Below are positions 1-3,817 of a stretch of DNA of 3,817 nt, one piece after another (positions within the stretch are counted from its first letter, which is position 1; the number at the start of each line of letters is the position of its first letter). The position numbers were made by a program, and so were the translations under genes. The DNA lies in the IMG/VR virus record IMGVR_UViG_2671180921_000020, positions 1 to 3,817 of that record; one strand, written 5' to 3'. A model generated the notes under the pieces. That model was not told the DNA's origin. It saw nothing but the letters and a program-made list of their open reading frames with translations, and searched no databases. Source of the DNA: a virus (Duplodnaviria; Heunggongvirae; Uroviricota; Caudoviricetes).

Positions 1-267
1 GTGAGTGAGTCAAAATGCCAAATTAATGGCAACAAGATAGAACCGTGCGCGGCGCTGGCACAATCTCTGGAGCAGGATGCTGAATACACGACGCGAAAAG
101 GCCTGCTGATATACAAAATCTATAACCATGAATTAATTCATTCACAAGATCTGATCATGCTTCGGTCTGGTGAATTTTCTAAATCACCGATTCGAGTTTC
201 ATTTTGTCCGTTCTGTGGTAAGAGTCTGAAAACATGGGAAAAGGAGACAACCAGTGGGCAAGATTGA
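1..267 (+). CDS. Hypothetical phage protein, 5'-truncated C-terminal fragment, with a possible Cys-pair (zinc-ribbon-like) motif
   Basis: Open frame runs from base 1 to TGA at 265-267 with no in-frame ATG until about codon 53, so the true start is probably upstream of the window. Contains C-x9-C (KCQINGNKIEPC) and CPFC pairs. The next ORF begins 14 nt before its stop, preceded by an AAGGAG RBS. Confidence 0.55.
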   Translation: MSESKCQINGNKIEPCAALAQSLEQDAEYTTRKGLLIYKIYNHELIHSQDLIMLRSGEFSKSPIRVSFCPFCGKSLKTWEKETTSGQD

Positions 268-670
268 CTATCAGGCACTGCGTGGGGCGGCAGAGCAGGC
301 AATGCATGACGACTGGGGATTTGACGCGGACCTTTTCCATGAGCTGGTAACACCATCGATTGTGCTGGAACTGCTGGATGAACGGGAAAGAAACCAGCAA
401 TACATCAAACGCCGCGACCAGGAGAACGAGGAAATTGCGCTAACGGTAGGGAAGTTGCGCGTTGAGCTTGAGGCAGAAAAACAGCGTGCAAAGGATCTGT
501 TTATGGAAAATGCTCGGCTTAAGTCAGGTATAGCCGGTCTGATACACCTCGGTATTCGATATGCAGATGTTGAGGTCATGAGAATTGCTGGAGATGCCCA
601 GCTTTCTACCCCATGCACTGACAGCATCATAAACAGCATTGCAACAGGCATTCGCATCAAAGGAGAGTGA
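254..670 (+). CDS. Hypothetical phage early protein with coiled-coil segment; possibly Ead/Ea22-like
   Basis: GTG start at 254 lies 7 nt after AAGGAG (241-246). 138-aa ORF with a heptad-like charged segment (ELEAEKQRAKDLFMENARLK). The N-terminus (IDYQALRGAAEQA...W) resembles, from memory, the N-termini of Ead/Ea22-like proteins. Its stop at 668-670 is 1 nt before the next start. Confidence 0.6.
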   Translation: MGKIDYQALRGAAEQAMHDDWGFDADLFHELVTPSIVLELLDERERNQQYIKRRDQENEEIALTVGKLRVELEAEKQRAKDLFMENARLKSGIAGLIHLGIRYADVEVMRIAGDAQLSTPCTDSIINSIATGIRIKGE

Positions 671-671
671 T

Positions 672-1040
672 ATGAGCGCTATAACCAAAGAACGTATCAA
701 ATTATTCATTAAAAATCCGCTTGATAACGGACTTACTCGTGGCGAACAAATGGAACTGGCACGAATTGCACTGGCATCGCTGGAAGCAAAACCAATAGGT
801 GCTTTCCACATTGCAGAACAGCAGGTCGATGGCACAAGTGACTACATCAAGGATGGGGAGTGGCCTATTGATAATGGGACAATTGAAGTATACGCCGCCC
901 CTCCAGCGCCAGTAGTGCCGGAAGAAAAACCAATGCCGAACCCTCTTAGCATGTACGCGGTTGATGCTGTTGCCGCTATTGCAGAGGTGAGAGGATGGAA
1001 CGCCTGCCGTGCAGCCATGCTTAAGGGGGATAAATCATGA
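672..1040 (+). CDS. Hypothetical phage protein (122 aa), Pro-rich linker; possibly related to the Ea22-like family
   Basis: ATG at 672 is preceded by AGGAG (661-665). I chose it over the track's upstream start at 639, which has no RBS and overlaps the preceding gene. Ends with the ATGA overlap at 1037-1040, coupling it to the next gene. Confidence 0.6.
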   Translation: MSAITKERIKLFIKNPLDNGLTRGEQMELARIALASLEAKPIGAFHIAEQQVDGTSDYIKDGEWPIDNGTIEVYAAPPAPVVPEEKPMPNPLSMYAVDAVAAIAEVRGWNACRAAMLKGDKS

Positions 1041-1399
1041 TTAATCGAACCAAACTGGAGCACATCCTCGAGTATGCCAGGCAGCAGAGGCGCTTTGGCC
1101 AGCTTTGTAAAATTCTGCCAGGAGATATGGTTGAAATCGTGGAGATTGCCATGCGTAAGACTGGCAACTCTCCGGTAACTCCGGATGGTTGGATAAGCTG
1201 TAGTGAGCGAATGCCAAACGATAAACAGTATGTTTGGTGTTGGGGGAAGTCTTACGGCTGGACTGAGTGCGATACCTTCGAAGGGTATTACGATTGGTCG
1301 AGAAACAAATGGTGGGCAATTACTGACGATGGGGAAGAACCGGCATCGAAAGTAACCCACTGGATGACGCTATCGGAGCCACCGCAGGAGGTGAAGTGA
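1037..1399 (+). CDS. DUF551-like phage protein
   Basis: 120-aa ORF whose ATG at 1037 overlaps the upstream TGA (ATGA). Trp-rich C-terminal region (GWISCSERMP...YVWCWG...WW...VTHWMTLSEPP) matches the motif I recall for DUF551 phage proteins. AGGAGG (1386-1391) is embedded near its 3' end for the next gene. Confidence 0.6.
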   Translation: MINRTKLEHILEYARQQRRFGQLCKILPGDMVEIVEIAMRKTGNSPVTPDGWISCSERMPNDKQYVWCWGKSYGWTECDTFEGYYDWSRNKWWAITDDGEEPASKVTHWMTLSEPPQEVK

Positions 1400-1683
1400 T
1401 GGACTCCTTCGCGAAATATACGATTATTGACTGGGTAGCCTTCCTTCAGGTTTTGCTCATCTGGTTTTATATGGCTTACAGGAGTGGACAGTGGATTGTC
1501 AGTGTAGCCTGTAGCAAGGGATGGCGTTGGTGGAACCGAAAGAATAAAAAAGCGCTGGCCTTGGATTCGTTTTACGAAGCATTCAATCTTAACAGCCTTC
1601 AGCCTGGTTCTGTCGTTGTAGTCACCACTCAAAGCGGCATGACGATACAAATTCACAAGCCAAAGGAGGAAGGTCGTGGCTAA
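1399..1683 (+). CDS. Small single-pass membrane protein (94 aa), hypothetical
   Basis: ATG at 1399 overlaps the upstream stop (TGATG), 7 nt after AGGAGG. Residues ~8-28 (YTIIDWVAFLQVLLIWFYMAY) form an ~20-residue hydrophobic stretch followed by a basic cluster (RWWNRKNKK), consistent with an N-out/C-in membrane helix. The track start at GTG 1396 is also possible. Confidence 0.55.
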   Translation: MDSFAKYTIIDWVAFLQVLLIWFYMAYRSGQWIVSVACSKGWRWWNRKNKKALALDSFYEAFNLNSLQPGSVVVVTTQSGMTIQIHKPKEEGRG

Positions 1684-1957
1684 CCTGCAACTTGCCGTTA
1701 AAGGTGAATACTTCGATGCCATGATTCGAGGAGAGAAAACGGAAGAGTATCGCCTGTGTAATGACTACTGGAATAAGCGAATTATGTTCCGGGAGTATGA
1801 CCGCCTGATTATCACAAAGGGATATCCGAAGCGCGACGACTCCAGTCGCAGAATTGATGTTCCGTATGGAGGATATGAAGTGAAAACAATCACACCCCCC
1901 CACTTCGGTGATAAGCCGGTAAAGGTATACGCGATAAAGGTGAATATCAATTGCTAA
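1676..1957 (+). CDS. ASCH/PUA-like domain protein (putative), 93 aa
   Basis: GTG at 1676 lies 6 nt after AGGAGG (1664-1669) and overlaps the upstream stop by 8 nt. The N-terminal segment LAVKGEYFDAMIRGEKTEEYR resembles the ASCH-domain beta-strand/GxK motif as I recall it. Ends TAA at 1955-1957, last gene of the coupled chain. Confidence 0.5.
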   Translation: MANLQLAVKGEYFDAMIRGEKTEEYRLCNDYWNKRIMFREYDRLIITKGYPKRDDSSRRIDVPYGGYEVKTITPPHFGDKPVKVYAIKVNINC

Positions 1958-1981
1958 ATTAGTGGCATAGCATAAAGATGC

Positions 1982-2006
1982 TTGCATTAATGAAGTGTGT
2001 ATAATA
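1982..2006 (+). promoter_or_regulatory. Candidate sigma70-type promoter for the AT-rich-island ORF
   Basis: Perfect TATAAT hexamer at 2000-2005, immediately preceded by TGTG. TTGCAT at 1982-1987 is -35-like but only 12 nt upstream, which is a suboptimal spacer. Lies in AT-rich intergenic DNA about 65 nt upstream of the ORF start. Confidence 0.35.
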
Positions 2007-2071
2007 ACACCTAATCAATAGTAAACTACTGAAATAGCAAAAAAAAATGCATATTAAAGAGGATTCGAAAA

Positions 2072-2263
2072 TTGAAAATGTTCATGCAAATAGACAGACG
2101 CATAGATATTAATGGCAATTCATACTTAGTTAGATGCGAAGAGAGGCCTAACGGTGAGTGGCGTGTATATGATATTGACCGTAAGGTCAATATCAGCACC
2201 ATGAACAAAGACACTGCCTTTGATGAATGGAAAGCTGAAGCTAAAAAACAACATAATTCGTAG
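2072..2263 (+). CDS. Small hypothetical protein (61-63 aa) in an AT-rich island; moron-like
   Basis: ORF ending TAG at 2261-2263. Candidate starts are TTG 2072, ATG 2078 and ATG 2084, downstream of AAGAGGA (2057-2063). AT-rich codon usage contrasts with flanking genes. Flanked by a promoter-like element upstream and a hairpin plus T-tract downstream. Confidence 0.5.
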   Translation: MKMFMQIDRRIDINGNSYLVRCEERPNGEWRVYDIDRKVNISTMNKDTAFDEWKAEAKKQHNS

Positions 2264-2305
2264 AATTACAAAAACCCTAACCAATTGATGGATTTCTTTT
2301 ATCTG

Positions 2306-2330
2306 AACTCGCTACGGCGAGTTTTGTTTT
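2306..2330 (+). terminator. Rho-independent terminator candidate
   Basis: Perfect 7-bp stem AACTCGC (2306-2312) / GCGAGTT (2317-2323) with a 4-nt loop TACG, followed by TTGTTTT (2324-2330). Confidence 0.5.
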
Positions 2331-2343
2331 ATGGAGATGATAA

Positions 2344-2511
2344 ATGCACTTCCGAGTTACAGGTGAATGGAATGGAGAACCATTCAACAGAGTTATCGAA
2401 GCAGAGAACATCAATGACTGCTATGACCACTGGATGATATGGGCGCAGATAGCACATGCAGACATAACCAATATTCGAATTGAAGAACTGAAAGAACACC
2501 AAGCCGCCTGA
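2344..2511 (+). CDS. Small hypothetical protein (55 aa), not in the supplied ORF track
   Basis: ATG at 2344 lies 7 nt after GGAG (2333-2336) and directly follows an in-frame TAA. Translation: MHFRVTGEWNGEPFNRVIEAENINDCYDHWMIWAQIAHADITNIRIEELKEHQAA. Stop TGA at 2509-2511 falls inside the loop of the downstream terminator hairpin. Occupies the position immediately upstream of xis. Confidence 0.5.
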   Translation: MHFRVTGEWNGEPFNRVIEAENINDCYDHWMIWAQIAHADITNIRIEELKEHQAA

Positions 2512-2526
2512 TGGCGGCTTTTTCTT
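2501..2526 (+). terminator. Rho-independent terminator immediately upstream of xis/pI
   Basis: 8-bp GC-rich stem AAGCCGCC (2501-2508) / GGCGGCTT (2513-2520) with loop TGAT, followed by a T-rich tract TTTTTCTT (2519-2526). Confidence 0.65.
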
Positions 2527-2565
2527 GCGTGTAATTGCGGAGACTTTGCGATGTACTTGACACTT
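2525..2565 (+). promoter_or_regulatory. pI-type CII-dependent promoter with CII recognition repeats TTGC-N6-TTGC
   Basis: TTGC at 2525-2528 and 2535-2538 separated by 6 nt (GTGTAA) is the canonical lambda CII site architecture. The surrounding sequence matches lambda pI as I recall it. A weak -10 is expected around 2551-2557, so the transcript would start inside xis. Confidence 0.7.
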
Positions 2566-2769
2566 CAGGAGTGGAACGCACGCCAGCGACGCCCAAGAAG
2601 CCTTGAAACAGTTCGTCGATGGGTGCGCGAATGCAGGATATTCCCTCCTCCGGTTAAGGATGGAAGAGAGTATCTGTTCCACGAATCAGCGGTAAAGGTT
2701 GACTTAAATCGACCAGTAACAGGTAGCCTTTTGAAGAGGATCAGAAATGGGAAGAAGGCGAAGTCATGA
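2551..2769 (+). CDS. xis: Excisionase Xis (lambda-type, 72 aa)
   Basis: Protein MYLTLQEWNARQRRPRSLETVRRWVRECRIFPPPVKDGREYLFHESAVKVDLNRPVTGSLLKRIRNGKKAKS matches lambda Xis as I recall it. GGAG RBS sits 8 nt upstream, and the 3' end overlaps the int start by 23 nt as in lambda. Confidence 0.9.
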   Translation: MYLTLQEWNARQRRPRSLETVRRWVRECRIFPPPVKDGREYLFHESAVKVDLNRPVTGSLLKRIRNGKKAKS

Positions 2770-3817
2770 GCGCCGGGATTTACCCCCTAACCTTTATATA
2801 AGAAACAATGGATATTACTGCTACAGGGACCCAAGGACGGGTAAAGAGTTTGGTTTAGGCCGAGACAGGAGGATAGCAATCACTGAAGCAATACAGGCCA
2901 ATATTGAGTTATTTTCAGGACACAAACACAAGCCTCTGACAGCGAGAATCAACAGTGATAATTCTGTTACGTTACATTCATGGCTTGATCGCTACGAAAA
3001 AATCCTCGCCAGCAGAGGAATCAAGCAGAAGACACTCATAAATTACATGAGCAAAATTAAAGCAATAAGGAGGGGGCTGCCTGATGCTCCACTTGAAGAC
3101 ATCACCACAAAAGAAATTGCGGCAATGCTCAATGGATACATAGACGAGGGCAAGGCGGCGTCAGCCAAGTTAATCAGATCAACACTGAGCGATGCATTCC
3201 GAGAGGCAATAGCTGAAGGCCATATAACAACAAACCCGGTCGCTGCCACTCGCGCAGCAAAATCAGAGGTAAGGAGATCAAGACTTACGGCTGACGAATA
3301 CCTGAAAATTTATCAAGCAGCAGAATCATCACCATGTTGGCTCAGACTTGCAATGGAACTGGCTGTTGTTACCGGGCAGCGAGTTGGTAATTTATGCGAA
3401 ATGAAGTGGTCTGATATCGTAGATGGATATCTTTATGTCGAACAAAGCAAAACAGGCGTAAAAATTGCCATCCCTACAACATTGCATGTTGATGCTCTCG
3501 GGATATCAATGAAGGAAACACTTGATAAATGCAAAGAGATTCTTGGTGGAGAAACCATAATTGCATCTACTCGTCGTGAACCGCTTTCATCCGGCACAGT
3601 ATCAAGGTATTTTATGCGCGCACGAAAAGCATCAGGTCTTTCCTTCGAAGGGGATCCGCCTACCTTTCACGAGTTGCGCAGTTTGTCTGCAAGACTCTAT
3701 GAGAAGCAGATAAGCGATAAGTTTGCTCAACATCTTCTCGGGCATAAGTCGGACACCATGGCATCACAGTATCGTGATGACAGAGGCAGGGAGTGGGACA
3801 AAATTGAAATCAAATAA
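2747..3817 (+). CDS. int: Site-specific tyrosine recombinase, lambda integrase Int (356 aa)
   Basis: Full-length ORF starting MGRRRSHERRDLPPNLYIRNNGYYCYRDPRTGKEFGLGRDRR (lambda Int N-terminal arm-binding domain) and ending ...SDTMASQYRDDRGREWDKIEIK. Catalytic residues are at lambda positions (R212 codon 3380-3382, HELR at H308/R311, Tyr342 codon 3770-3772). TAA stop at the last bases of the window. Confidence 0.93.
   Translation: MGRRRSHERRDLPPNLYIRNNGYYCYRDPRTGKEFGLGRDRRIAITEAIQANIELFSGHKHKPLTARINSDNSVTLHSWLDRYEKILASRGIKQKTLINYMSKIKAIRRGLPDAPLEDITTKEIAAMLNGYIDEGKAASAKLIRSTLSDAFREAIAEGHITTNPVAATRAAKSEVRRSRLTADEYLKIYQAAESSPCWLRLAMELAVVTGQRVGNLCEMKWSDIVDGYLYVEQSKTGVKIAIPTTLHVDALGISMKETLDKCKEILGGETIIASTRREPLSSGTVSRYFMRARKASGLSFEGDPPTFHELRSLSARLYEKQISDKFAQHLLGHKSDTMASQYRDDRGREWDKIEIK

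Follow-up and report, generated by a model that had tools for sequence, protein, structure and literature searches.

What holds together six small, tightly joined genes ahead of the excisionase and integrase genes of a lambdoid prophage: a shared function, or only the manner in which they are joined? The genes, here named A to F, lie on the + strand of a 3,817-nucleotide (nt) stretch of Caudoviricetes DNA (IMG/VR record IMGVR_UViG_2671180921_000020, positions 1 to 3,817; "the window" means this whole stretch), and every junction between them overlaps or nearly so (Table 1). An earlier note, made from the sequence alone, had read this chain, from 254 to 1957, as translationally coupled genes expressed stoichiometrically from the pL transcript and perhaps forming a multi-component accessory system. 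The comparative analysis described here leads to a different answer: the block is very probably a stretch of the hypervariable early-left ‘ea’ or exo-xis accessory region, made up of six independent, individually exchangeable small genes and encoding no single machine. The type of region and its variability are already known; the junctions add a specific account of how its cassettes can be exchanged, with the stop codon of the upstream gene in or beside the start codon of the downstream one.

Distribution of the six genes among relatives

The block at 254-1957 was compared by megablast with 5,426 complete Escherichia coli genomes, and an IMG/VR sample of 474 loci, made up of the 80 relatives nearest to each gene, was searched with all six proteins. 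Pieces of the block were present in 3,456 of the 5,426 genomes, none of which carried at least 80% of it (best 69%), and no phage record covered at least 80% of the window. At none of the 474 IMG/VR loci were all six genes found together; the loci showed 51 different presence combinations. The synteny comparison across lambdoid prophages suggested in the earlier note thus turned up no co-occurrence as a set in either sample. Sampling the closest relatives of each gene favours co-occurrence, and its absence is therefore a robust result. The immediate neighbours, scored only at loci with enough flank, were of many types for every gene: 8 downstream types for A; 15 downstream and 12 upstream types for B; 26 and 15, respectively, for C; 19 and 4 for D; 10 and 5 for E; and 9 and 7 for F.

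Structure of the gene junctions

Direct reading of the sequence found the overlaps, the start and stop codons and the Shine-Dalgarno (SD) motifs of the five junctions where the earlier note had placed them (Table 1). At all five, the upstream stop lies within a few nt of the downstream start and the SD lies inside the upstream open reading frame (ORF). The upstream stop codon falls inside the first codons of F (codons 2-3, GTGGCTAAC) and of B in its 14-nt-overlap form (..ATTGAC), and it overlaps the start codon itself at D/E (TGATG) and C/D (ATGA). Because the stop codon sits in or at the downstream start, any in-frame ORF joined there ends at the same place, whatever it encodes.

The relatives show the same geometry with other partners. 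In 52 of 75 relatives the gene after B starts behind the same +1 gap, and 15 different genes are found in that place; this geometry travels with the 3' end of B. A -1 junction lies ahead of E in 71 of 73 loci, and a -8 junction lies ahead of F in 60 of 77. The ends of the proteins encoded upstream are alike as well: unrelated proteins ahead of E (four families other than that of D) all end in ..QEVK before the stop codon, those ahead of F end in ..QEVNRG or ..KEEGRG, and several unrelated families ahead of B end in ..SEQD or ..SERN, A ending here in ..TSGQD. When loci whose upstream gene differs from that of the window were compared, identity to the window ahead of the start codon extended over ~15 nt for B, 17 nt for E and ~38 nt for D, and was limited to the SD alone for C and F. 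The ~38-nt leader at the C/D junction encodes GWNACRAAMLKGDKS and a stop codon, followed by ATGA, and one mosaic unit runs across the gene boundary from the end of C into the beginning of D. The SD, the start codon and the stop codon of the preceding ORF are found within ~25 nt of one another at every junction, and some of that stretch travels with the downstream gene. Two relatives that share the same upstream gene X offer a direct example of exchange: L099 reads X-E-F and L008 reads X-F, with E either there or missing between SD-like sequences (ccgcaggaggt, followed by gaagtgATG in L099 versus taaccGTG in L008). Similarity breakpoints cluster at the gene junctions and inside B (~370 and ~490), C (~760-800 and ~900) and D (1141-1230, where the NSPVTPDGW linker leads into DUF551).

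We propose that the overlaps arise because joining takes place in this region at the start codon or a few bases before it, so that no spacer is left; they would then be a generic interface of this operon into which genes can be plugged, as in the lambda series cIII-kil-gam-bet-exo-orf60a. Each gene would be translated from its own SD, situated within the final codons of the preceding gene, and in the case of B, D and E a leader of ~15-38 nt (SD plus spacer) would travel with the gene. Recombination at the short shared SD and start sequences, and at intragenic domain linkers, could then swap, insert and delete cassettes while the operon stays translatable. The junction analysis fits the published boundary-sequence model, a passage of PMC2327257 citing Clark et al. 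2001 for the statement that lambdoid mosaicism arises partly via recombination at short conserved boundary sequences.

Translational coupling and gene packing

Folding of the 71-nt RNA at each junction gave z-scores against shuffled sequences of +0.98, -0.18, +0.81, +0.42 and +0.65, and at none of the five did it reveal an SD-masking hairpin above the level of the shuffles. The junction RNAs being no more structured than shuffled sequences, independent initiation at each SD is possible; termination-reinitiation coupling may add to expression, and it would be specific to no partner. In related phages the expression of exo-xis genes is strongly unequal, ea22 being highest in Shiga toxin (Stx) phages and lowest in lambda (PMC10834534). 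The stoichiometric expression of A to F put forward earlier is not supported, and since the partners are not conserved the overlap geometry is no evidence of stoichiometric assembly.

Close packing is found in the lambda pL operon itself, where cIII, kil, gam, bet, exo, orf60a, orf63 and orf61 are linked by seven consecutive overlapping or abutting junctions, and about half or more of the junctions overlap or abut in the early-left operons of two other relatives. Lambda bet and exo act as partners; the lambda overlaps link such partners (bet/exo) and genes with unrelated products (kil/gam, exo/orf60a) alike. Tight packing is consequently the norm for this kind of operon and carries no distinguishing signal. 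Coupled operons that encode true complexes (lambda bet-exo, ribosomal protein operons) likewise have overlapping start and stop codons and an SD inside the upstream ORF, but differ from the window, whose partners are not conserved. This calls for caution in reading such chains: start/stop overlaps with embedded SDs are the default way of joining genes in lambdoid early operons and link unrelated, freely exchanged genes, so they are no evidence for a complex or a ‘system’.

Alternative explanations

It is highly improbable that A to F constitute one multi-component system (for example, an anti-defence or host-takeover complex) held at fixed ratios by coupling. Such a system would account for a run of five junctions that overlap or abut and all carry an SD, for the lack of internal promoter-like and terminator-like sites in our scans, and for a chain that is intact in a few near-identical prophages, two of them with a different xis/int module. 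However, the genes do not co-occur as a set in either sample, every one of them has many alternative neighbours, identical junction geometry joins unrelated partners, the same packing is seen among lambda pL genes of unrelated function, and RNA structure does not hide the SDs. None of the eight small proteins had a significant match in NCBIfam or PADLOC; the sole match to the PADLOC defence models, a collection without anti-defence models, was that of B to a type II restriction enzyme model (E 0.012). The accessory system proposed earlier is thus not what the relatives show: their genes are independent and shuffled, the pattern that the earlier note itself had named as refuting a system. A former DUF551 gene of which C and D would be the two halves, either as a split gene or as a pseudogene remnant with ATGA as the scar, is doubtful, although somewhat less so. 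It is suggested by the RefSeq annotation of C-like genes as DUF551 proteins ‘missing C-terminus’, by the alignment of positions 116-183 of the phrog_60 profile to C and of positions 203-283 to D, and by the protein ending in the GWNACRAAMLKGDKS tail that lies ahead of D-type N-termini in 29 of 32 loci. D nevertheless has its own N-terminal module (phrog_24004), start codon and SD, and ATGA is found in 27 of the 32 relatives, which argues for a stable two-gene organisation and no recent frameshift; the C/D junction, read by eye, holds no slippery heptamer. Programmed frameshifting at the ATGA was likewise considered and rejected, no such heptamer being seen.

Several observations weigh against six fully independent genes. 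F lies directly after E in 44 of 68 E relatives, more than free shuffling predicts, and among 63 loci the adjacent pair is kept amid 29 different combinations of flanks, E-F being the only pair with notable, if loose, linkage; the end of C moves along with the beginning of D; and the exact six-gene chain is unchanged in a small lineage that includes relatives with a different integration module, although this persistence probably reflects recent common descent (the lineage is 99.5-100% identical). In addition, the sample was drawn from the nearest relatives of each gene, with contig ends truncating many of the loci, and as far as comparative data go a physical interaction between neighbours is possible. 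The E-F linkage could mean that these two genes alone form a functional module that tends to move as a unit, with the other four independent, and F is indeed present in 68% of the E-anchored loci versus 8-28% of those anchored on A to D. We consider this unlikely: E occurs without an adjacent F at 24 loci and F without an adjacent E at 59, E lies upstream of F in only 24 of 77 F relatives, F has 474 relatives in IMG/VR and E only 178, DUF4752 is missing beside the F homologues of Salmonella, Citrobacter and other Enterobacteriaceae (those of Salmonella follow DUF551 genes with the same 8-nt overlap), and the adjacency is explicable by linkage and common descent. A toxin-antitoxin-like obligate E-F pair was rejected, each gene being often without the other. 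To a further view, in which the SD-like sequences of the cassette interface would be preferred crossover points and the pL accessory region would work like a promoter-less, integron-like array whose cassettes go in and out without breaking translation, with E-F as a true two-gene unit, we give as small a chance as to the E-F module. Six individually exchangeable genes in an ‘ea’/exo-xis region is the reading retained in what follows.

Operon context and source prophage

The window is 100% identical to contig LOCS01000013.1 of the NCBI draft assembly GCA_001606755.1 (L478), and nine contigs of public assemblies encode a protein identical to B. The 5' part of the prophage carries N (Pfam N36), Nmad5, DUF2528, cIII, kil, genes for proteins of 62, 226 and 195 amino acids (aa) and Abc2; the 3' part carries A to F, G, H (orf55), xis and int, followed by the host pectinesterase and aconitase genes. 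We take the pectinesterase gene to be ybhC and the integration site to be lambda attB. N, cIII, kil, the recombination genes and Abc2 all lie upstream of A to F on the same strand. The placement of the block in a pL-direction early-left operon upstream of xis-int, as well as its assignment to the exo-to-xis variable region, between the recombination genes and xis-int, was therefore correct in the earlier note, and one pL-type transcription unit is plausible; judging from this context, A to F are probably carried on one N-antiterminated pL transcript. Simple scans of the + strand found no promoter-like or terminator-like site in window 1-2227, the first promoter-like match being at 2228-2257, and no terminator-like site at 1432-4755 of the locus L476 (through the terminator of gene G), the last one before it being at L476 1412-1431.

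The source prophage is without lambda-type exo/bet. Upstream of the window, at L476 694-2278, it encodes the 226-aa protein, which has a weak AAA_22 match, the 195-aa protein and a P22-type Abc2 (Anti-RecBCD_p2); the early-left operon is thus itself a lambda/P22 hybrid. Two further relatives, L477 and L480, share window 1-2538 at 99.5% identity, diverge ~13 nt before the xis start and have another, 66-aa gene in the excisionase position; their integration module has been swapped at a boundary just past the orf55 terminator.

Comparison with known systems

The closest parallel in position is the exo-xis region of lambda and the Stx phages (orf60a, orf63, orf61, orf73, ea22, ea8.5, orf55), studied in the Wegrzyn and Donaldson laboratories, which occupies the same place upstream of xis-int in the pL direction and shares with the window an ea22-family gene, an orf55 homologue and tightly packed, small non-essential genes. 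The gene set downstream of ea22 is variable in that region (PMC8614690), as it is here. Differences from lambda are that the orf60a-orf63-orf61-orf73 block is not in the window, that the Ea22 variant lacks the lambda C-terminal domain and that C, D, E, F and G stand in place of ea8.5. Similarity to lambda starts at window 253, the base before the B start codon. Gene A occupies the slot just ahead of the ea22 gene, in which lambda-type records (L003 2558-3002) have a TraR/DksA-family zinc-finger gene, lambda orf73.

The ‘ea’ genes of P22, HK620 and the Lederbergvirus group (eaA to eaI, Ead) resemble the block in gene order, with Ead/Ea22, DUF551 and ASCH-like genes in the same succession and with the same 1-nt gap and 8-nt overlap, as well as in exchange at short conserved gene-boundary sequences. 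Boundary-sequence mosaicism in the early-left region of P22 and HK620 is said to have been described by Clark and colleagues in 2001 and by Juhala and colleagues in 2000. Unlike the P22-type prophages, the prophage studied here has a lambda-type integration module, presumably at lambda attB, and another combination of cassettes.

Genes and proteins of the window

All six ORFs of the chain match PHROG families (E 1e-39 to 1e-49), and three of them exceed the Pfam gathering score: B (Ead_Ea22), D (DUF551) and E (DUF4752). The + strand frames are therefore real genes, as had been argued from their junctions.

Table 1 Features of the window and of the junctions between genes A to F (coordinates in nt of the window).
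Feature	Coordinates	Strand	Description
Gene A	1-267	+	88 aa; phrog_4030
Gene B	254-670	+	138 aa; short mosaic Ead/Ea22-family protein; PF13935
Gene C	672-1040	+	122 aa; ‘head’ module ending in GWNACRAAML; phrog_60/5117
Gene D	1037-1399	+	120 aa; phrog_24004 N-terminal module, NSPVTPDGW linker, then DUF551
Gene E	1399-1683	+	94 aa; DUF4752; PF15944
Gene F	1676-1957	+	93 aa; ASCH-like (putative PUA-type beta-barrel); phrog_625
Gene G	2072-2263	+	63 aa; phrog_16329; outside the overlapping chain
First intrinsic-terminator-like hairpin 3' of the chain	2305-2324	+	terminator scan
Gene H	2344-2511	+	lambda/434 orf55 homologue; phrog_676
Second terminator-like hairpin, 3' of gene H	2501-2520	+	terminator scan
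xis (excisionase)	2551-2769	+	PF07825, 139 bits
Lambda-type integrase	2747-3817	+	PF00589 and PF09003
A/B junction	241-267	+	stop TGA 265-267; start GTG 254; 14-nt overlap; SD AAGGAG 241-246
B/C junction	660-674	+	stop TGA 668-670; start ATG 672; 1-nt gap; SD AAGGAG 660-665
C/D junction	999-1040	+	ATGA 1037-1040; 4-nt overlap; SD-like AAGGGGGA 1023-1030
D/E junction	1382-1401	+	TGATG 1397-1401; 1-nt overlap; SD AGGAGGT 1386-1392; cassette CGCAGGAGGTGAAGTGATG
E/F junction	1663-1683	+	stop TAA 1681-1683; start GTG 1676; 8-nt overlap; SD AAGGAGGA 1663-1670

The products of A to F are most likely separate factors that modulate the host or the choice between lysis and lysogeny. Protein A has four cysteines (C6, C16, C69, C72), which may make up a zinc ribbon, and had chance matches only when Pfam was rescanned with E up to 10. 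Protein B (PF13935, 83.6 bits versus a cut-off of 27) is 87% identical to lambda Ea22 over residues 1-78, which cover the N-terminal segment and the first part of the coiled coil; the alignment stops at residue 78, the C-terminal 60 aa are unrelated to lambda Ea22, and by alignment the lambda-type dimeric C-terminal domain is absent. Ea22 is a tetrameric, pro-lysogenic protein with mosaic, variable C-termini, one variant of which has DUF551 (PMC10834534, PMC7093339), and the C-terminal domain also differs among the Ea22 variants of Stx phages (PMC10834534). B is most likely a variant of the pro-lysogenic Ea22. Sequence searches of the PDB gave only chance-level matches for D and F, and none for B.

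The kind of module found in C is usually fused to DUF551, and RefSeq names its relatives truncated DUF551 proteins, ‘missing C-terminus’. In D, DUF551 (PF04448, 57 bits versus a cut-off of 22) spans residues 51-117. The domain is known from YfdS of prophage CPS-53, whose loss causes sensitivity to H2O2 (PMC4776307). Two Salmonella loci (L492 and L494, 1549-2508) encode a 319-aa protein that joins a Lar restriction-alleviation domain (PF14354) to DUF551, and its gene is followed by an F homologue with the same 8-nt overlap. This arrangement hints that DUF551 may be a common C-terminal module carried on anti-restriction or other ‘head’ domains.

Protein E (PF15944, 122.6 bits versus a cut-off of 27) carries a single hydrophobic helix near its N-terminus (residues 8-28) with a basic stretch behind it and is probably a small membrane-anchored protein; a literature search for ‘DUF4752’ found no papers. 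Homologues of F are named ‘ASCH domain-containing protein’ in the sources, and in the same Pfam rescan F itself reached 16.1 bits with ASCH PF04266, below the cut-off of 21.2 (E 0.019). Its AlphaFold2 model has a mean predicted local distance difference test (pLDDT) score of 87.4, and the ASCH-superfamily structures 3iuw, ZmASCH (5gus/5y6c) and YqfB (9kyh) are prominent among its top Foldseek matches in the PDB; the scores are weak (best E 0.013, probability 0.98, template modelling (TM) score 0.44-0.60). We regard F as ASCH-like, membership of the superfamily not being proven, and as probably nucleic-acid-binding. A search for ‘ASCH domain’ together with ‘prophage’ returned no title or abstract bearing on F. 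Leads to single-gene functions in host modulation or anti-defence may still reasonably be sought in the region, among them the Ea22 variant, DUF551, DUF4752, the ASCH-like protein and the Lar-DUF551 fusions.

Gene G stands apart from the chain. It lies within an island of 32-36% GC, the surroundings having 45-52%, with a 114-nt AT-rich spacer ahead of it and the terminator-like hairpin at 2305-2324 behind, and together with its surroundings it looks moron-like. The A-run at 2039-2047 is A9 in the window versus A7 in L476, which is otherwise 99.95% identical; the difference could be due to homopolymer slippage or to a sequencing error. The DNA of gene G is present in L476 by alignment, though without a gene call there.

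E. coli plasmids, several of which measure 93-109 kb, also carry pieces of Ea22-like and DUF551 genes, at 717 places in all. Plasmids of this size may be phage-plasmids, and cassettes would then circulate beyond integrated lambdoid prophages. Finally, window 787-818, within gene C, is identical to the final spacer of the type I-E clustered regularly interspaced short palindromic repeats (CRISPR) array of E. coli EC42405 (NZ_CP043414.1, between cas2e and iap), and the canonical AAG protospacer adjacent motif (PAM) lies directly ahead of this protospacer at 784-786, indicating that one E. coli strain has acquired immunity against a phage carrying the segment.

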